From a virus (Duplodnaviria; Heunggongvirae; Uroviricota; Caudoviricetes): a stretch of 50,795 nucleotides of DNA. Positions 3,037-40,458 of this stretch are shown piece after piece. The translations under genes and the position numbers were made by a program. Positions within the stretch are counted from its first letter, which is position 1. Each line of letters begins with the position of its first letter. The notes beneath the pieces were generated by a model. It saw only the letters and a program-made list of their open reading frames with translations, had not been told where the DNA came from and made no database searches. The DNA is taken from positions 128,803-179,597 of the IMG/VR virus record IMGVR_UViG_3300008262_000042, one strand, 5' to 3'.

Positions 3037-3465
3037 ATGATTAATTTAATAAATATACTTAAGAGTGTTCTATTAGAATACACGCCAAGCGATCCATCTA
3101 ATATAGATAAAGCAATAAATGATATAAGTAGTTTAGGTTATAGAAATCCTTTAAATCCTAGTGAAATTGTAATAGACGATAAAGTAATAATTGAAGTTTC
3201 AAATTGGGATAAAAGACTTTGGATAAGTAGTTTAAAATCAATAGAAAAAAAAGAGGGCAATGCTACTAAAGTTATGACTACTATTTGTAAGATAGCAGAT
3301 AAACATAATGTAACTATAGCGCTAGATCCTGTACCTTATGGAAAAGATAAAAATAAGCTAAATTATAAGCAATTAGTTAATTTTTATAAAAAATTTGGTT
3401 TTAAATTTGAAGAAGGGGAAGAGGGTTTTGGCGATATGGAAAGAGTTGCTAATCAAAATAGCTAG
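3037..3465 (+). CDS. GNAT-fold acetyltransferase-like protein with a putative capsid-targeting propeptide
   Basis: KEGNATKVM (motif A-like) and LVNFYKKFGF (GNAT motif B); N-terminus MINLINILKSVLLE. Confidence 0.6.
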   Translation: MINLINILKSVLLEYTPSDPSNIDKAINDISSLGYRNPLNPSEIVIDDKVIIEVSNWDKRLWISSLKSIEKKEGNATKVMTTICKIADKHNVTIALDPVPYGKDKNKLNYKQLVNFYKKFGFKFEEGEEGFGDMERVANQNS

Positions 3466-4414: not shown

Positions 4415-4555
4415 CGCACCCGAGCTCATCCTCAGAGTCTAATTAAAGGGATAATATAACATATAGGCCATAAAAAAGAGCTCTGGTGAGCTCCTGGTGT
4501 GTCTTGGGCGTATTGGTTATCAATGAGTTATAACTGATTGACTATCAATTAAATA
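4415..4555. repeat. Copy 1 of a dispersed intergenic repeat with IHF-like boxes
   Basis: TATCAATGAGTTA at 4518-4530 matches WATCAANNNNTTR; GAGCTC motifs shared with five other loci. Confidence 0.6.
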
Positions 4556-4573
4556 TGCAGTATACTATTACAA

Positions 4574-4882
4574 TTACTTTACTGTAAGCGAATTCGCTGC
4601 TTGTTCTAAATGTTTAATGCAATCTTCTTTTGTTGCAAAAGGTTTTTCAGTTTTATATAAAGTATCTCCATAAGATTCACTAAAAGATGGCCGACTTCTA
4701 AATCCAGCTGCTGGCAAATCACTAGACACATACTTTTTTAAATATCCAGTAAATCCGCGTTTAGTTGGTACTATAATACCAGCGATTTTAAAAGCTGATT
4801 TATTTAAAATCATAACTTCTTTTACAAAAATATTTTCACTATCTGTATCATTTTCTATCAATAAATCTGTTAAATTAATCAT
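4574..4882 (-). CDS. Hypothetical protein, possible internal head protein
   Basis: MINLTDLLIE N-terminus resembles the 3037 ORF; ATATTTAT upstream. Confidence 0.55.
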   Translation of the reverse strand: MINLTDLLIENDTDSENIFVKEVMILNKSAFKIAGIIVPTKRGFTGYLKKYVSSDLPAAGFRSRPSFSESYGDTLYKTEKPFATKEDCIKHLEQAANSLTVK

Positions 4883-4928: not shown

Positions 4929-5924
4929 TTAATACATCAAACTACTATCTTTTATGTCTTGTAAAAACTTAGGATTATTACCTAAATTGAAACTATCATT
5001 AAATATCCATGTGTAAGGAATGTTTTTAGTAGGTCGTTTTTGTCCATGAGATATAGCTATGTGCTTCCAAAAAAAGCACGTTTTATCTTCTACGTTTAAA
5101 TACTTCTGTTCTTTCATAGGATTATTAGGATGCTCTACTAAAATTTGCATCTGTCTTACCCACTCTTCTGCTTGTTTATTTTCAGGTATAAAATCGCCTA
5201 ATTCATTTATAGTATATTTAACTTTACCATTTAAGTTCTGTCCACCAAATATTTGATGTAGCCCATCGAAATGTCCAGTTCCTCCAAATAGTATAGATTC
5301 TGGGTCTACTAAATGAGGATATGACATTGCAATGTATCTTGCTGTATTTTTACATGGATATAATGGACTTCTAAAATTTTGATGTTCTTTAAAATATGAC
5401 TCAAGGAATTTAGCAAATTGCATCATAGTCATTTTAGGTCGTATACCGCTTTCAATCTCATCTAATACATAGAATAAATCATCCGCAGCTTTCTTAGGTC
5501 CTGTGAGAATCCACTCTTTTACATTTGTGCCCTTAGGATAATATATTTGAAATAGATCATTACGAGCATGCCTATTTTCTTTAAAGTGTTCTTTAGTGGC
5601 TTGTATGCCTTCATTATATAATTTAGTGAATGTACCCCAATGTTCATTTGTAAAACTAAAGACTAAAGTTAAAAATAATCTAGCACGGTTATCAGTAACA
5701 TTTTGCATCCACTCGCAATATGGATGTTCATGCCAATGTAAACGATGTGAGAAGATCTGGTATTCTGATTTTAGTAAATCATCTTGTCTATCGTCGAATT
5801 TATGACAGAACTCAAAAAACTTATCTAAGCGTTGATCTAAAGTCCAATCCTTCATCCAACTATCTATAGGCTTCTTTCCCTTAAAAAGTACTTCACATGT
5901 ATTTTGATATATTATATTGCTCAT
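4929..5924 (-). CDS. Putative DNA base-hypermodification enzyme (aGPT-PPlase / amino acid:DNA transferase-like helical fold)
   Basis: FFEF..K...R.DDLL N-terminal block and NVEDKTCFF C-terminal block resemble this family; distant paralogue of 6672-7856. Confidence 0.5.
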   Translation of the reverse strand: MSNIIYQNTCEVLFKGKKPIDSWMKDWTLDQRLDKFFEFCHKFDDRQDDLLKSEYQIFSHRLHWHEHPYCEWMQNVTDNRARLFLTLVFSFTNEHWGTFTKLYNEGIQATKEHFKENRHARNDLFQIYYPKGTNVKEWILTGPKKAADDLFYVLDEIESGIRPKMTMMQFAKFLESYFKEHQNFRSPLYPCKNTARYIAMSYPHLVDPESILFGGTGHFDGLHQIFGGQNLNGKVKYTINELGDFIPENKQAEEWVRQMQILVEHPNNPMKEQKYLNVEDKTCFFWKHIAISHGQKRPTKNIPYTWIFNDSFNLGNNPKFLQDIKDSSLMY

Positions 5925-10500: not shown

Positions 10501-12042
10501 TTAGATTTCAATCGCCTCGATTGCCTTAATTAACACTTTTGGATCAATTTCAACCTTCTTGATCAGTTCGTAGATGTCCGCTGAGTAGCCATGGATTTGA
10601 TAGATCTTTTCTCCTGGCTTGAACATTGTAGTTCCGTATCCAGTGATGTCTACACAATATACGTGAGCATCTTTGTAAGATGAACGTTCTAATCTATCAC
10701 GTCCTTGCATATCACTGATTACGAATACACGATCATACTTACCTCCTAAAGTTGGCATAATACTGTTGAAAGCTGTGCCGTAACCTACTGAACCTTGAGC
10801 TGATGTGAATAAACGCTTAAGCGAGTTAACACTATCAAGCGGATTGAACTTAATCATTCTGCAAGAGTCAGCAAAGTGGTATACATCTGCATTGATACCT
10901 TTTGCGAGAGTTGCTGCGATCAGAGCAGCCTTATCGATTGCTCTTTCTGAACCTCTCTTATTGCTCACAAGTCTGATTGGAGTGTCCATTGAACCTGAGC
11001 TATCAAATACTACTGCAGTTTTACCTGATGTGAATAGTTCTGTAAGGTTTGGAATAGATAATTCGTATGCCTTATTCAGAGCTTCCATGAAAGGTCTTGC
11101 TTTACTTGCTCCGAATTCATCTAACATTATTTCTAATGCTAAATCGATTTGGTGCGGAAACACAAGCGATTGCTTAATTAGCTTGCTGTCAGTTAAGAGT
11201 TCACAAGCGCCTTTAACAATTTCTGACTTAGCTCCAGTGTTTAAGATGTTTCTTAGGTTACGAAGTAACGCTAAATATCCAATCTTACGTGTTGCAATTA
11301 ATTCAGCATAGTTTTCTTCCTTAGCTTGATCTAATTGAACTTTTGCTTGTTCAGCTGTAATAGTACCTGACTTAACCTTAGCTGCAACTTCTTGACCAGC
11401 CTTAGTGTTCTTATCTTCAACAGTATTGAATTGCTTTAATTCGCCCTTCATTAACTTTGCAAACACCGGCTTCATCTTTTCAGATGGCTTAGGGTGCACA
11501 AGGTTAACGATGTCTACTAAAGATAGATCACGGTTCTTCGCTTGGTACTTAGCTAATTCATACTCATCAGCATTTTCTAAAGCTGCTTTGAAACCCTTTT
11601 TGATAGCGTTTGAAAGTTGCTTTCCTGGATTACGTGCTATGTAACAAGATGCGATTTCAAGCATATCGTCTAAACGAAATATGATACCGCCCTTGTTTTC
11701 CTTACGAGCTCTCTTAGAGAAGAACTTAGCACCTAAAGAGTCGCCTGATAGAACTTTTGCTAACTCTACTGCACCGAAGTGAGTAACTGTTCTTTGTCCC
11801 ATCACAGTACGAGCATAAATAAGAGCTTTTGCTGCGAACAATTTATCTTTCTTTGCAACCTCTGCGATTACATTAGATAAACGTTGTTCACGCTCTCCTG
11901 CTTTTTCGTAATACTTGTTGTCTAATCCTGTAGCTAGAATTGCTACTAATTCATGTTTAGGGTCATACTTGTACCCTACACCACCTTGGTGGTTTGTAAC
12001 TGCTGTTACTTTTGGTTTTGCTTTTGCATTGTAACGTGCCAT
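10501..12042 (-). CDS. rsr: Ro60 / TROVE-domain RNA-binding protein with vWA domain
   Basis: N..GG.GY, YQAK.R, D..NLVHPKP, ALLRNLRN, VFP, and the vWA MIDAS motif DSSGSM...ISDMQ. Confidence 0.92.
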   Translation of the reverse strand: MARYNAKAKPKVTAVTNHQGGVGYKYDPKHELVAILATGLDNKYYEKAGEREQRLSNVIAEVAKKDKLFAAKALIYARTVMGQRTVTHFGAVELAKVLSGDSLGAKFFSKRARKENKGGIIFRLDDMLEIASCYIARNPGKQLSNAIKKGFKAALENADEYELAKYQAKNRDLSLVDIVNLVHPKPSEKMKPVFAKLMKGELKQFNTVEDKNTKAGQEVAAKVKSGTITAEQAKVQLDQAKEENYAELIATRKIGYLALLRNLRNILNTGAKSEIVKGACELLTDSKLIKQSLVFPHQIDLALEIMLDEFGASKARPFMEALNKAYELSIPNLTELFTSGKTAVVFDSSGSMDTPIRLVSNKRGSERAIDKAALIAATLAKGINADVYHFADSCRMIKFNPLDSVNSLKRLFTSAQGSVGYGTAFNSIMPTLGGKYDRVFVISDMQGRDRLERSSYKDAHVYCVDITGYGTTMFKPGEKIYQIHGYSADIYELIKKVEIDPKVLIKAIEAIEI

Positions 12043-12122: not shown

Positions 12123-13008
12123 AAAGACTTGAGACTATAGTCTTGACGTCGATACTTTCAAGAGATTATATTATTTTCCTCTTTTGTCCAATAGCTTTTG
12201 ACTATTATACCGACAATGCCGATTAGTTAGACTAATCACCCCTTAAGTCACTTTGTTTGGACTACTCTCTCCTTACTCCGTCCGTTCTACTCTGCCGAGC
12301 AGATTAATCCTTGCGAGATTACGACCTTTTCGAGAAAATCACCTTCGGCTTGCGGCCTTAGATGGCATCTGACGACCAGATACTATGTAGGCATTTTTCG
12401 TCCGTGACTGGCAAGCGCTTATGCTCTAATTTATTAGATTAATAGATTTCGCTACAAATGCAAATTATTAAAGTTTGACTTGTGGATTGTAAAGGTAGTG
12501 GCTTGCCCTGAACCGGCTCCGCTTTTGGCAGAGTAGATATTCAACTACCTTTTGAAATGTCCCCATTTCCATGTTTTAAGATTCCTTCACGCAACATACT
12601 CTTGGTAGAGTACATCGCAGATGAACAACAGCACCACCTGTACGAACATATACCTTTCGGTTTTAAGATACCTCTCACATTGATTAACGCAATCACGTAA
12701 CTGGATGAGCTACGCCCTTTGCATACAATCTATAGGTTATTCTTATTGGAGTTCCCTCCTCAATCGGACGACCCACATCGCCCAATTACAAATCCACTTT
12801 CCCTACAGTGTTACCCTCAGTACTGAAGGATTCGTAATACCCTACTTGCATACTCGAGCATCTTTACAGATGCCGCAAAACGCTTCAGTCAAGCGTCTCA
12901 CTTTATACCACTTTCGTGGTTTATTTAACGACTATATGCCGCCGAATGTTATTTATCGAACTTCTTCAATTAAACCGAAGCCATCAAGAAGATGTTCGAA
13001 TGGATAAC
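12123..13008 (-). ncRNA. GOLLD-like giant non-coding RNA (~885 nt)
   Basis: GC-richer, hairpin-dense and without a credible ORF; motifs recalled from GOLLD (GUUAUCCAUU start, GGCGGCAUAUAGUCG, GAGGGUAACACUGUAGGGAAAG, GCCUACAUAG); tRNA-array context; needs Rfam confirmation. Confidence 0.75.
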
Positions 13009-13095
13009 AATATTTTCAAAGAACTTAATTTGATATAATTAACAATGATATAATGTAAATATACATCAACTTTTTCAATCTAAAAAACTTTCGTT

Positions 13096-13379: not shown

Positions 13380-13434
13380 ATCGTGCTCGTGGTCGGGGTC
13401 GAACCGACACGGACCCTTCGGTCCACAAGATTTT

Positions 13435-14129
13435 CTTACTACTATAGTTTTCACTACCACATTAACGTGTTTGTAGTCTGGACTATACCTTCACCATATT
13501 TTTCAATTTAGGTGTTCCGTGTCTAGTCTCTACACCTTCCCTTTCAGGCTTGGCTCGGTATTACCATTTTAAAGGTTTCACCGAATTTACGGAATTCTAC
13601 TCTTTAGATTTCTCTAAAGGCACTCAATTTCTTTTCTTTGAACGAAATGTGTGTGTTTGCGAATGACAATTTGGACAAAGCATTCTTAGGTTATCAATTT
13701 TATGATTATGACTATTACCATCGATATGGTCTAGTTCGATCATTAATGGTTTTCCTAACCAAGAATCTAATCCGCAAATATTACATTCATTTTTAAATAT
13801 ACCCTCTTTTAGTAATCGTATTTTTAATTTATACGTCTGAAATGATGGATGCTTACCTTCTAAAATCTCTTTTAGTTGTATTTTAGGATCAATAGGTTTT
13901 TTAACACCTTTTAATCCTTTATTTGGTTTATAACATCCAAACTTTTCTGCTACTCTTTTTAGAGTATTAAAATGAACTTTTAATTTAATAGCAGCGATAG
14001 TCATTGACTCACTACTATTGCAAACTTCTGTAACTCTTTCTTTTGTTAAATCTTTTCTCATATATTATAAATATAATACACATAAGAAAATATTAGTCGT
14101 TACATTAATTAAATTCAAAGAACTTATAT
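13435..14129 (-). mobile_element. Group I intron (IC3-like) carrying an HNH gene
   Basis: Core motifs AAAUUCGGUGAAAC, AAUACCGAGCCAAG, GUAGAGACUAGA, GAAGGUAUAGUCC; terminal G; inserted after U34. Confidence 0.88.
13624..14061 (-). CDS. Intron-encoded HNH homing endonuclease
   Basis: CNIC...ELDHIDGNSHNH..DNLRMLCPNCH. Confidence 0.9.
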   Translation of the reverse strand: MRKDLTKERVTEVCNSSESMTIAAIKLKVHFNTLKRVAEKFGCYKPNKGLKGVKKPIDPKIQLKEILEGKHPSFQTYKLKIRLLKEGIFKNECNICGLDSWLGKPLMIELDHIDGNSHNHKIDNLRMLCPNCHSQTHTFRSKKRN

Positions 14130-14172
14130 AAGTCTTGCGCGTGCTGCCAATTTCGCCACACGAGCTTTAATG

Positions 14173-14689: not shown

Positions 14690-14909
14690 ATTTTCCCCAT
14701 AGCGAGATTTTCTATGAGTAGTCGTATCGGTTTTTACTATTTGAAAAACCTGCTGGGCATCCCCGATAAAAAGTCAGTTCTTTACGTCGGAGGTGCAGAA
14801 CTTTGCTACCCTTTATCCGAATCGAAATTCCTTCGGTGGAAATTTTTTATCCCCATCCATTGTTAAATGAGTCTTGGATGAAAGACTTCTGAGTACCTCT
14901 TACTCATTG

Positions 14910-15206: not shown

Positions 15207-15275
15207 TTGCGTATATTAGTGTCGAACTAATCTAACATCGGATATGAGCCAATGTCGGTCGCCGGACCATACGCA
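15207..15275 (-). tRNA. Atypical tRNA with CAU anticodon (short D arm)
   Basis: Loop CUCAUAU, extended anticodon stem, T arm AUUAG-UUCGACA-CUAAU. Confidence 0.55.
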
Positions 15276-15417
15276 ATTTAAACACTGTTGGGATACCCGT
15301 CTCGTCCCAATCTTAACGGCTTTGTTAAAGTTTTACAACGCGTTGGCCGAGGGTGCTACTGCTTTTTACCTATGTCGGATTTGTCGACAATCCTACATAG
15401 AGACAGTCAGTGTCTAG

Positions 15418-15648: not shown

Positions 15649-15798
15649 TCAGCAAAGAATGTTTCCAACAGTTGTGTTACGTGCTCTACCACTGAGCTAT
15701 CTCCCAATAAGATTTCTTTTAATAGTTGGGAGAGATGGAATCGAACCACCGACCACGGCATTAGGAGTGCGAAGTAACTGTTTAGATTACTATTGCTA
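15649..15798 (-). ncRNA. yrlA: YrlA-type Y RNA (permuted tRNA-like domain)
   Basis: Ro stem + GGUGG-UUCGAUU-CCAUC, UCUCCCAA/UUGGGAGA closed acceptor stem, UAGCUCAGUGGUAGAGC D arm. Confidence 0.82.
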
Positions 15799-15823: not shown

Positions 15824-15896
15824 TTGACCCTATCGGACTCGAACCGATAACTTACGCGTTATGAGCGCGGCACTCTAACCATTGAGTTAAGGGTCA
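15824..15896 (-). tRNA. tRNA with CAU anticodon (Ile2-lysidine or elongator Met)
   Basis: Cloverleaf, loop CUCAUAA. Confidence 0.85.
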
Positions 15897-16046: not shown

Positions 16047-16352
16047 TTTTTTAAATAGTTTGTATCGCCTTCTAAGTAGGAAAATCATTAGCCCTTCCGT
16101 TTTATCGTAAGTAAGGCACGATCTGAAATCTTACGCGGAAATACAGTATTTTTCTGATTATTTATAACCTAAACCACTCACATCTTAGACTATGAGGTAA
16201 CAACTTTCACCTTTTCTCTTGAACCACTTTACATTTCAAGTCAGAATGTAATTGAGATAGCTATTCTCGTTTGTAGTTACTCTATTTTTCGCCCTGTAAC
16301 GGACAGTTTGTTCATTGTTACTGTTTAGTGTTAATCGATCCAAACTATCTAG

Positions 16353-19079: not shown

Positions 19080-19718
19080 TTATAATTTTCTTCCTCTTTG
19101 CCATCCTTCTGGTATAGAATCCTCTTTTTTTATTTTTTTGTTTTCGATACCATTGGTAATCCACATTGTGCCGTATTGAGAATTATTTGAATTAGAATGT
19201 CTACCTTTGTGAGAATTACTAATTTTCTTTTTAGTTTCAGCAGAATGTGATTTCCCAGTCCAATCTAATCCATTTAATTCGCCTTTTTTATAAAGGCTTT
19301 TTAAACTATCTCGAATTCTATCGTTAACATACTTTTTAAATAAAAGATCTTCATCTTTCTTTTTATTTATTTTATAAGCGCCTGATCTAGATATGTTTTT
19401 TCTAACCTCATTACTTAAAATAGGCCAACCACCAGTTCCACCAGGTTTTAAGTTCATGCACATCTGATCTTTCAAAAGATCTTCATTAACGAGTTGCTTT
19501 TCTCTTTCTACTAAAGCTTCTCTAGATTCGAAGAATTCCAAGATCTCAAACTTGAAATTTTCTTTTCCATGATAATTTATCGAATGCCATAGTCTTTTAC
19601 CAGATCCTATATAGCCATCTTCTAAGTTATCCGTTGAGTGCATTCCTATATAAAATTTACCATTTTTTATGTTGGTAGTTTTATATACGAAATTATATTT
19701 TTTCTGTGTCCTTAGCAT
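19080..19718 (-). CDS. Seg-like GIY-YIG homing endonuclease with NUMOD3
   Basis: FVYKTTN..NGKFYIGMH....DGYIGSG; GKSHSAETKKKIS (NUMOD3); WITNG...IPEGW.RGR. Confidence 0.88.
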   Translation of the reverse strand: MLRTQKKYNFVYKTTNIKNGKFYIGMHSTDNLEDGYIGSGKRLWHSINYHGKENFKFEILEFFESREALVEREKQLVNEDLLKDQMCMNLKPGGTGGWPILSNEVRKNISRSGAYKINKKKDEDLLFKKYVNDRIRDSLKSLYKKGELNGLDWTGKSHSAETKKKISNSHKGRHSNSNNSQYGTMWITNGIENKKIKKEDSIPEGWQRGRKL

Positions 19719-19764
19719 ACTTATGTTTTATAATAAATATGCATAAGGTACAGAATTTTAAGTG

Positions 19765-20204: not shown

Positions 20205-20277
20205 TGGTACTCCCCGGTATCGAACCGGGTCCTCAAGATTTTCAGTCTTGCGCTTCTACCTAGTTAGCTTGAGCACC
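20205..20277 (-). tRNA. trnF: tRNA-Phe(GAA), first gene of the array
   Basis: Cloverleaf, loop CUGAAAA. Confidence 0.9.
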
Positions 20278-20282
20278 AAAAT

Positions 20283-20310
20283 AAAAAAACCCCGATTTTT
20301 TAATCGGGGC
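20283..20310 (-). terminator. Intrinsic terminator/attenuator directly before the tRNA array
   Basis: CCCCGAUU-AAAA-AAUCGGGG-UUUUUUU, ending 5 nt before tRNA-Phe. Confidence 0.85.
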
Positions 20311-20335
20311 CTTTGTAGTTTTTTATAGTTAATCT

Positions 20336-20482
20336 TTATCCAAGATCAGTATCTCTACTTTGCCCCGTGTCGTGCGGTTTGCCTTGCGCGTCAATATTCA
20401 CACTAAAGCAATACCCAAGCGACAACGTATTTCTACGCTCTACTTGCCAATTTTTGCTGTTATGTAATAATATACGTGCCAT
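20336..20482 (-). CDS. Putative 48-aa attenuator leader peptide containing all 20 amino acids
   Basis: MARILLHNSKNWQVERRNTLSLGYCFSVNIDAQGKPHDTGQSRDTDLG; A-rich start context, ATATTTAT upstream; contains CGGGGC complementary to the terminator 5' arm. Confidence 0.65.
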   Translation of the reverse strand: MARILLHNSKNWQVERRNTLSLGYCFSVNIDAQGKPHDTGQSRDTDLG

Positions 20483-20516
20483 GATTATTTTTTTACTATT
20501 ATAAATATATAACTTT

Positions 20517-20806: not shown

Positions 20807-21301
20807 TGGTGGACCTGGCGGGAATCGAACCCGCGTCTTACTATGGAATCATAATACCAACGTCTCACATGCTTAGTACTGATAAATGTGACGTATAGCT
20901 CTTCAGGAATTAACCTTTAGATAACTGGTTCTTTTATCTGCACCGTAAAGGGGCTACCCAATTGGGTAACGATTCCACCACCTGATTTTACGACTATCAG
21001 GAAAACATTGAGTATATGTAGACCTCTACATGAGTTGTTTCTACATTAAAATGCATAGCCTTTTAGATCATGCTTTATGCAAGTACTCGTTTGTTATTTT
21101 CTGTTGCCAGGGATAACTCCCCCACCGCTTATGCAGCTACTGCTACACTAGAGAAAATAGAAGCTAAGATAGCTTCACCTTCAGCGATACGAGCTTGTTT
21201 ATTTGCGTCGTTTATTGTTCTGCGCAGATTTAAAGACATCTAGCACTTCTGTCTGCATGTGGTACTACCATTCATCATAGCAATCAATACCGGACAGGCC
21301 C
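20807..21301 (-). ncRNA. ssrA: tmRNA
   Basis: GGGCCUG.../...UUCGAUU-CCCGC-CAGGUCC-ACCA with G3.U70; tag frame 21209-21129 ending VAVAA-stop. Confidence 0.9.
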
Positions 21302-22929: not shown

Positions 22930-23008
22930 TAGTCAGGACAGGATTCGAACCTGTGTAAGGGGTGGGGTCTGCCACTATCTCTGCGCTATCCAACTACGCC
23001 ACCTGACT
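22930..23008 (-). ncRNA. tRNA-scaffold variable-core element, copy F
   Basis: Conserved arms with a 28-nt core and no anticodon arm. Confidence 0.75.
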
Positions 23009-29512: not shown

Positions 29513-29596
29513 TAGTCAGGACAGGATTCGAACCTATATACCTTTGGAGGAGCCTACTGCCCAGCACCAACCGTCTACCAATTGCGCCACCTGACT
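29513..29596 (-). ncRNA. tRNA-scaffold variable-core element, copy G
   Basis: Conserved arms with a unique core. Confidence 0.75.
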
Positions 29597-33206: not shown

Positions 33207-33339
33207 TGATCAGGACAGGATTCGAACCTATGACTTAAGACTGACCCCTTACTGACCTTTCGGTATCCGCGCCCTACCAGACTTGGTGCGATATTTCATT
33301 ATCTTAGGGAGTTGCTCTAACCAACTGAGCTACCTGACT
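33207..33339 (-). ncRNA. tRNA-scaffold variable-core element, copy H
   Basis: Same acceptor/T arms but a different D arm (UAGCUCAGUUGGUUAGAGC). Confidence 0.7.
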
Positions 33340-33579: not shown

Positions 33580-33677
33580 CAGTCAGGACAGGATTCGAAC
33601 CTGCAAGAACTCTTTTTATTCTTCGCTCTGGTTACTGTATTTCGCCAGCCACGGCTTTACCATTCCGCCACCTGACT
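33580..33677 (-). ncRNA. tRNA-scaffold variable-core element, copy I
   Basis: Conserved arms with a unique core. Confidence 0.75.
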
Positions 33678-34236: not shown

Positions 34237-34336
34237 TAGTCAGGACAGGATTCGAACCTGTAATGTACGCAAGTGACACCAGAGACAGGAATCGAACCTC
34301 CCACTTGTGTGCGTCTACCAATTCCGCCACCCGACC
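34237..34336 (-). ncRNA. tRNA-scaffold variable-core element, copy K (second T loop in the core)
   Basis: GGUCGGG/CCUGACU acceptor; core contains AGG-UUCGAUU-CCU. Confidence 0.72.
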
Positions 34337-40377: not shown

Positions 40378-40458
40378 TAGTCAGGGCAGGATTCGAACCT
40401 GCATCTCCTCCGTTTGCTTCGGTGTTTGATGTAATCTAACCAATTATACGACCTGACT
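40378..40458 (-). ncRNA. tRNA-scaffold variable-core element, copy L
   Basis: Compensatory T-stem change GCAGG/CCUGC. Confidence 0.72.

Follow-up and report, generated by a model that had tools for sequence, protein, structure and literature searches.

A leader ORF that indexes the tRNAs downstream: a probable ribosome-mediated attenuator ahead of a phage tRNA array

Multivalent leaders are represented by thrL and ilvGMEDA, and pheST is an example of control by an attenuator. The closest described counterparts of the phage leader reported here are the trpL/hisL attenuators, with which it shares a short leader ORF, mutually exclusive antiterminator and terminator helices, regulatory codons that correspond to the operon's product and a geometry set by the ribosome footprint (PMC1183508, in excerpt); leader-peptide attenuation has also been inferred in a flavobacterium (PMC9723704, in excerpt). 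On the other hand, the phage leader controls tRNA genes, i.e., the decoding molecules themselves, and up to 20 different residues are each represented in it by one or two codons, whereas in trpL/hisL the codons of only one to three amino acids are repeated in runs; moreover, it is borne by a phage, has no predicted 1:2 protector and is predicted to read through in its untranslated state. Since codon runs, a biosynthetic target and a protector hairpin are all missing, it is not filed among the trpL/hisL leaders. T-boxes resemble it in that tRNA status chooses between terminator and antiterminator (PMC4695836, in excerpt), but a T-box binds one uncharged tRNA directly and without a ribosome, and the phage leader has no Rfam T-box match. 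The trn L-array of Anabaena under TrcR is likewise long, and it is normally silent until translational stress induces it (PMC8421152 and PMC10272220, both in excerpt). There, however, an RHH repressor acting on direct repeats over the promoter controls initiation and the response is not codon-specific, and the excerpts of that paper mention neither a leader nor attenuation (PMC8421152).

Why phages carry tRNAs has been asked for more than 50 years (PMC10264068, in excerpt). In counter-defence against anticodon nucleases, phage tRNAs replace the host tRNAs that were destroyed (PMC10264068 and PMC11555353, both in excerpt), and this is the likely purpose of the array described below. The control reported for counter-defence tRNAs is a strong promoter (PMC11555353, in excerpt), whereas the phage leader would act as an attenuator. 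The excerpts of these two studies do not mention attenuation, those of a transcriptome study of phage phi38:1 describe no attenuation of tRNA genes in this sense (PMC5335546), and full-text searches of open-access papers turned up no description of it.

The leader lies in the window, a 50,795-nucleotide stretch of a virus record that is 179,597 bases long and encodes head, portal and sheath proteins of T4-like type; positions given below are those of the window unless another genome is named (Table 1). On the minus strand, a tmRNA is followed by an 85-codon ORF, the leader, the tRNA array with its inserted endonuclease genes, a GOLLD RNA and a TROVE gene, and a terminator scan of the stretch found no terminator-like site between the tmRNA and the leader. 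The genes downstream of the leader are tRNAs and not amino-acid biosynthesis or synthetase genes. The ORFs of the genome show no G enrichment upstream of their start codons and have A at −3, −6 and −11 to −13, and Flavobacterium johnsoniae is described as showing the same pattern (PMC6847099, in excerpt); because of this resemblance in start-codon context, the host is probably a member of the Bacteroidota. No RNA polymerase or sigma family was matched among the proteins scanned (56 by PHROGs and 111 scans by Pfam, a subset of the ORFs), and for this reason we infer that the host polymerase transcribes the locus.

Table 1. Features of the leader locus and its surroundings (window positions).
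Feature	Position	Strand	Basis or remark
tmRNA	20807..21301	-	Upstream of the leader; RNA contigs in runs X1 and X2
Promoter-like motif ATATTTAT	20501..20508	-	Motif match; promoter role inferred
Leader ORF, 48 codons + TAA	20336..20482	-	Open frame; no Pfam match
Sensing zone, codons 2-36	20375..20479	-	Predicted to keep the antiterminator available when a ribosome stalls in it
Small conserved hairpin under codons 15-20	20424..20439	-	Candidate pause element; stem kept, loop variable in most homologues
Conserved hairpin, codons 23-26 with 33-36	20376..20416	-	RNAalifold consensus helix; -15.9 kcal/mol; candidate pause element
Region 2, antiterminator 5' arm (codons 39-43)	20355..20367	-	Folding and covariation
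Region 3, common to antiterminator and terminator	20305..20318	-	Folding and covariation
Intrinsic-terminator-like hairpin and U-tract	20278..20314	-	G+C core 20309-20290; extended stem 20314-20285; U-tract 20289-20278
tRNA array, all 20 amino acids	13383..20277	-	tRNA-Phe (20277-20204) to intron-split tRNA-Leu(TAA)
GIY-YIG endonuclease gene in the array	19080..19740	-	Own ATATTTAT at 19740-19733
GOLLD RNA, segment matched by the Rfam model	12126..12552	-	Rfam; behind the tRNA array
TROVE (Ro60-like) protein gene	10501..12042	-	Directly behind GOLLD

Similar to the −7 element TAnnTTTG of Bacteroidota, ATATTTAT occurs 30 times at most 60 nt upstream of the 222 genome ORFs, where 2.2 occurrences are expected; a sigma-70 promoter scan stayed at chance level (33 vs. 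33.4). Of 16 homologous leaders, 15 have the motif 12-27 nt ahead of their start codon, and no factor reading it was found among the proteins scanned. Copies are scattered over the genome (e.g., at 20508, 19740, 14074, 10471, and 9484 on the minus strand), often beside the host-type TAnnTTTG, and ATACTTAT takes its place in another lineage.

The first-pass annotation of this DNA had described, on the minus strand, a promoter-like motif, a 48-codon ORF, a terminator and a tRNA beginning at 20277, and each of them was found where it had been placed. All 20 residues do occur within the first 36 codons, as had been claimed, the set being completed by the Pro of codon 36, and so do the isoacceptor codons listed there for Arg (CGT/AGA), Ile (ATA/ATT), Leu (TTA/TTG/CTT), Ser (AGC/TCG, to which AGT can be added), and Gly (GGG/GGC). 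Ten of the 20 residues appear once in this segment and none more than four times, and codon runs of the trpL/hisL type are absent. In agreement with the statement that only AAG and an internal ATG are left uncovered, 23 of the 25 anticodon classes of the array can read these codons and the unread ones are Lys(CTT) and internal Met. Three CAT tRNAs form a single entry among these 25, and two low-scoring tRNA-Ser as well as the intron-split tRNA-Leu belong to them. In a relative, a single low-depth contig from RNA run X4 has AAG, the codon of the tRNA-Lys(CTT) that the window leader misses, at leader codon 10 (window position 20453).

A frequency check proposed in the same annotation was carried out, and 20/20 residues were found in 55 of 42,709 36-codon segments (0.13%) of genome ORFs of at least 100 aa. 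They were also reached by five of 1,362 ATG-started, stop-free 36-codon segments of the genome, the window leader included, and by 95 of 20,000 base shuffles. Complete coverage by itself is therefore rare (0.13-0.5%) yet found elsewhere in the genome, and the part that is not chance is its place, because only this one of 15 terminator-like sites in the genome combines a promoter motif, a short ORF and an antiterminator. A search for Rfam riboswitches and T-boxes on the leader gave nothing at cut-off (the best match, with an E of 0.16, was to an unrelated sRNA and came from the terminator), and these families were rejected as identities of the leader; a supposed likeness to the c-di-GMP-I riboswitch was dropped. 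By blastn against cultured phages, the leader returned 12 records, every one a short terminator-like match, and no second copy was found in the same genome.

Peptide, pattern and tRNA-anchored scans together produced 16 distinct leaders, the one in the window counted, and in all 16 a terminator and then tRNA-Phe lie downstream, each leader heading a tRNA array. Relatives had been expected to retain residue coverage despite peptide drift, and this is what was observed: 14 of the 16 reach 20/20 residues no later than a Pro at codon 34-36, the other two being L063 with 19 and L059 with 15, and collapse at 90% identity leaves 13 leaders, 11 of them with 20/20. Since the peptide-based patterns fix at most eight residues, the tRNA-Phe scan, which is blind to the leader, offers a fair sample; it gave 14 loci, ten of them distinct, among which eight have an adjacent leader (six of the eight at 20/20), the ninth has a different leader further upstream and the tenth has none. 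A protein search added five peptides, four complete by the Pro and the fifth one codon later, as judged by eye. Most loci from pattern scans were set aside as chance matches (25 of 29 in one scan and 108 of 119 in another, plus L047); the pattern scan of genome contigs gave one match, L052, and no leader was found at L055. The zone of L063 has no Arg codon although its array holds two tRNA-Arg, and its coverage of 18 of 22 classes is a real partial mismatch, while L059 covers 10/10 tRNAs of a shortened array cut by the contig end.

The leader frame is open in all 16 leaders and is maintained through in-frame length changes, and the other two frames are closed by stops in 13/13. Across 12 leaders (L059 left out), dN/dS is 0.42 in the sensing zone vs. 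1.09 in the tail. Ala sits in different blocks of different leaders, and Asp and Val are relocated in L079 and L065, all of these residues being kept. Chimaeras assembled column by column reach 20/20 in 27-46% of cases (p 3e-5 to 2e-4) and block by block in 47-72% (p 0.006-0.046); of single-crossover chimaeras 85% retain 20/20, which is not significant. All of these figures ignore kinship, and the tree is mostly unresolved. Resampling thus lends moderate support to selection on residue content.

Split and reduced arrays reveal how the residue content of a leader relates to the tRNAs behind it. A GOLLD-anchored scan, also blind to the leader, covered 60 loci and gave phages in which a leader and a terminator precede separate tRNA blocks. 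Twelve leader-block pairs were compared, 11 from these loci and one from the tRNA-Phe scan, with zone limits taken from folding alone and block tRNA lists from ARAGORN and Rfam (these lists include low-scoring tRNA-Ala and the three final tRNAs of L194, L200, and L241 but not the low-scoring tRNA-Val of L246). Computed without kinship correction, agreement between zone residues and block tRNAs extends to 201 of 240 cells, where shuffled pairings average 132 and none of 200,000 is as high. For the six less related pairs, under the same uncorrected statistics, it extends to 105 of 120 cells (mean 65; 1/720), and the match is a property of the zone: whole peptides of these pairs give 88 vs. 64.3 (1/720), and tails alone 51 vs. 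57.7 (692/720), i.e., no match.

One leader of L225 agrees with its block in 20/20 cells. Codons for Asp and Glu stand in the first leader of L203, with those tRNA genes; in L225 the genes have moved, and the codons are found with them in the other leader. There are eight misses in total, namely four CAT tRNAs behind ATA-bearing leaders, three Asp and one Leu; Asp is missing from three related leaders though their blocks hold tRNA-Asp. CAT tRNAs behind leaders with ATA and no internal ATG are seen in the second blocks of L203, L210, L225, and L193 and at 15896 in the window. By likeness, we take them to be probably tRNA-Ile2 rather than tRNA-Met, and leader codons can in this way help to assign doubtful tRNAs. 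No leader was found at the tRNA-bearing GOLLD loci L192, L214, L216, L217, L221, and L224. At about 17254-17470 of L207, a leader-terminator unit precedes a tRNA seemingly split by an HNH-carrying insertion; this unit lay outside the matching test.

The same arrangement is found in a cultured phage, Cellulophaga phage phi40:1 (KC821612.1), where leaders at 3070-3147, 4530-4619, and 5772-5861 stand before three tRNA blocks and cover 9/9, 6/6, and 5/6 residues of their own blocks, its tRNA-Ala having been read by eye. Agreement is 19, 17, and 16 of 20 for the true pairings vs. 5-8 for the wrong ones, and the union of the three leaders is 20. Two of them overlap CDSs annotated as hypothetical proteins. 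In the 635-kb phage LR745206.1, a Tyr/Glu-rich leader (11587-11673) precedes a Tyr/Glu block and an Ile/Gly/Ala-rich leader (12639-12722) precedes an Ile/Gly/Ala block, the presence/absence match being not significant for either (p 0.15 and 0.30), and no convincing leader was found in Vibrio phage 2.275.O. The first-pass annotation had spoken of a universal sensor. All 20 amino acids are indeed covered in the window, but not by design: a leader indexes its downstream tRNAs, and the window leader covers all 20 because its array is complete.

Behind the sensing zone lies the switch itself. The proposed pairing of CGGGGC-AAA-GUAG (20367-20355, codons 39-43) with a segment overlapping the 5' arm of the terminator is borne out by the sequence, the partner being 20318-20305, and the covarying pairs sought in relatives exist. 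In a plain MAFFT alignment, made without regard to structure, pairing of the antiterminator stands at 90% with five two-sided changes, a level reached by 0/500 shuffles and compared with 7-61% for slid registers, and the terminator is 87.8% paired with six two-sided changes (3/500 shuffles as high). A strict unbroken-helix rule is failed by six of the 11 tRNA-proximal leaders.

When the ribosome is given a fixed footprint that spans −15 to about +13, counted from the P site, and the switch is measured as an energy cost, the first base of region 2 lies at +13 to +18 in 13/13 leaders with the last Pro in the A site. In the 13 leaders modelled, the cost of freeing the terminator arm drops one to three codons after this Pro, in the window leader from 12.0 through 6.1 to 2.2 kcal/mol at P+4. 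L054 and L063 show only a shallow modelled drop, and in several leaders the drop is reversed close to the stop codon, where the antiterminator of the window leader is predicted to regain strength (8.4 kcal/mol). Folding of the same 13 leaders gave no 1:2 hairpin that would sequester region 2 in the untranslated state, and there is no trp-like protector because the antiterminator forms without a ribosome, in 13/13, at a cost of 5.9-12.8 kcal/mol. Read-through is thus predicted for an untranslated leader, so that any block of translation would also switch the array on. The two hairpins within the zone may be pause signals, and they may also explain part of the conservation of zone codons.

Layout, conservation, covariation and the codon-to-tRNA match are direct observations, and from them we read the leader as a ribosome-mediated transcription attenuator that gives autogenous feedback on the phage tRNA supply, with a probability of about 0.8. 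RNA polymerase, probably that of the host, would start behind ATATTTAT, and a ribosome would translate the leader, as its conservation suggests. A ribosome that passes codon 36 in time is predicted to cover region 2, leaving region 3 to pair with region 4 and transcription to stop before tRNA-Phe; a stall at any of codons 2-36 is predicted to let region 2 capture region 3 and the polymerase enter the array. Newly made phage tRNAs would then read the leader and shut off their own synthesis. Cleaved tRNA (e.g., from the host anticodon nuclease that the first-pass annotation had named), uncharged tRNA and a general slowdown would each act as a trigger. As each tRNA is represented by one or two codons, the response would favor drastic tRNA loss, such as destruction during infection, over mild starvation; the low sensitivity that an attenuation model assigns to sparse regulatory codons (PMC1183508, in excerpt) fits the detection of drastic loss. 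Weighing against the attenuator reading are this low sensitivity, the missing Arg codon of L063, the three leaders that lack Asp, the weak modelled switch of L054 and L063, the regained antiterminator strength near the stop codon, and the tRNA-bearing GOLLD loci without a leader.

An attenuator of this build could instead gauge overall translation speed or coupling, as affected by antibiotics, host shut-off or the number of free ribosomes, without being tripped by single missing tRNAs. Read-through as the predicted default in the absence of a ribosome would suit such a device, as would the low modelled sensitivity of one codon per tRNA (PMC1183508, in excerpt) and the induction of the Anabaena tRNA array by many ribosome antibiotics (PMC8421152, in excerpt). 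It is compatible with codon-specific attenuation, but it needs no codon-block match, and since zone codons and blocks do agree closely while tails do not, we consider it unlikely that translation speed is all that is sensed. A wider proposal, to which we give somewhat better than even odds, is that Bacteroidota phages from T4-like myoviruses to phi40:1 use a codon-indexed feedback, in which the leader spells the anticodon inventory of its block, is rewritten when tRNA genes move, and would let the phage sense when a host defence destroys any one class of tRNA and renew the supply from the matching block.

It is very improbable that the ORF yields a functional small peptide or small RNA whose transcript is ended by the terminator, the tRNAs being made from other promoters or by leak-through. 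Several leader residues are near-invariant across homologues, and one RNA contig covers the leader alone, both in favor of such a product. This contig, from run X4, belongs to a close relative (20305-20493, six differences, depth 2.9) and spans about the predicted terminated leader, of which it is a weak hint, assembled RNA contigs showing neither transcript ends nor levels. A contig of run X5 (20361-20511) begins upstream of the motif and of the predicted transcription start, which counts against the attenuation model; runs X1-X3 and X7 have no contig over the leader, an absence that is uninformative for assembled contigs. A separate source of tRNAs is suggested by the internal motif ATATTTAT at 19740, which may bypass the attenuator for the tRNAs after tRNA-Trp, i.e., for most of the array. 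However, the compact arrays L001, L010, and L248 have no inner ATAYTTAT motif in the part covered, the antiterminator covaries and sits at a fixed distance, and unrelated peptides occupy the same slot and track block content. Finally, the two conserved hairpins inside the ORF and the alternative helices, which alone would suit any riboregulator, could belong to a structured leader RNA switched by a phage protein or ligand as an antitermination timing device with the open frame as a by-product, but the lack of an Rfam match at cut-off, the survival of this one frame through length changes while the others are closed and a residue content that follows tRNA content make this scarcely credible.

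As self-regulation of a tRNA supply, the probable attenuator would carry this kind of control beyond amino-acid operons, to genes for tRNAs. A leader that indexes its array shows selection on tRNA supply under decoding stress, which favors the replacement of lost tRNAs over static codon compensation as the reason for carrying them. It also offers a compact sensor for tRNA-cutting defences, and phi40:1 on Cellulophaga baltica, a cultured phage-host pair, makes the model testable.

The window array and its surroundings hold further elements. In RNA run X1, contigs that match the phage itself without any difference cover the tmRNA, GOLLD and several stretches within the array. One of them covers the spacer between tRNA-Glu and tRNA-Asp (16093-16328, minus strand; depth 98), for which run X4 has a relative and no Rfam match was found, and which is a possible stable non-coding RNA; 14715-14902 and 15260-15410 show similar contig cover. 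The first-pass annotation had called the array a tRNA/Y-RNA array, and a YrlA-like match does lie within it (15659-15768, minus strand), near the TROVE/Ro60 gene, but its 35 bits fall short of the cut-off of 69; together, the YrlA-like element and the TROVE/Ro60 gene possibly form an RNA-repair module. GOLLD, which is heavily covered by RNA contigs from the phage itself and from relatives, probably extends about 400 nt further upstream than its Rfam match (12126 to about 12950, minus strand), and a TATATTTA motif at 13063 (minus strand) may be its own promoter. The gene for tRNA-Leu(TAA) (13383-14165, minus strand) is split by a group I intron with an HNH endonuclease gene that has its own ATATTTAT at 14074. 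Outside the array, six low-scoring tRNA-like elements (Rfam 31-43 bits) lie at 29513-29596, 33207-33339, 33580-33677, 34237-34336, 40378-40458, and 22930-23008 (minus strand).
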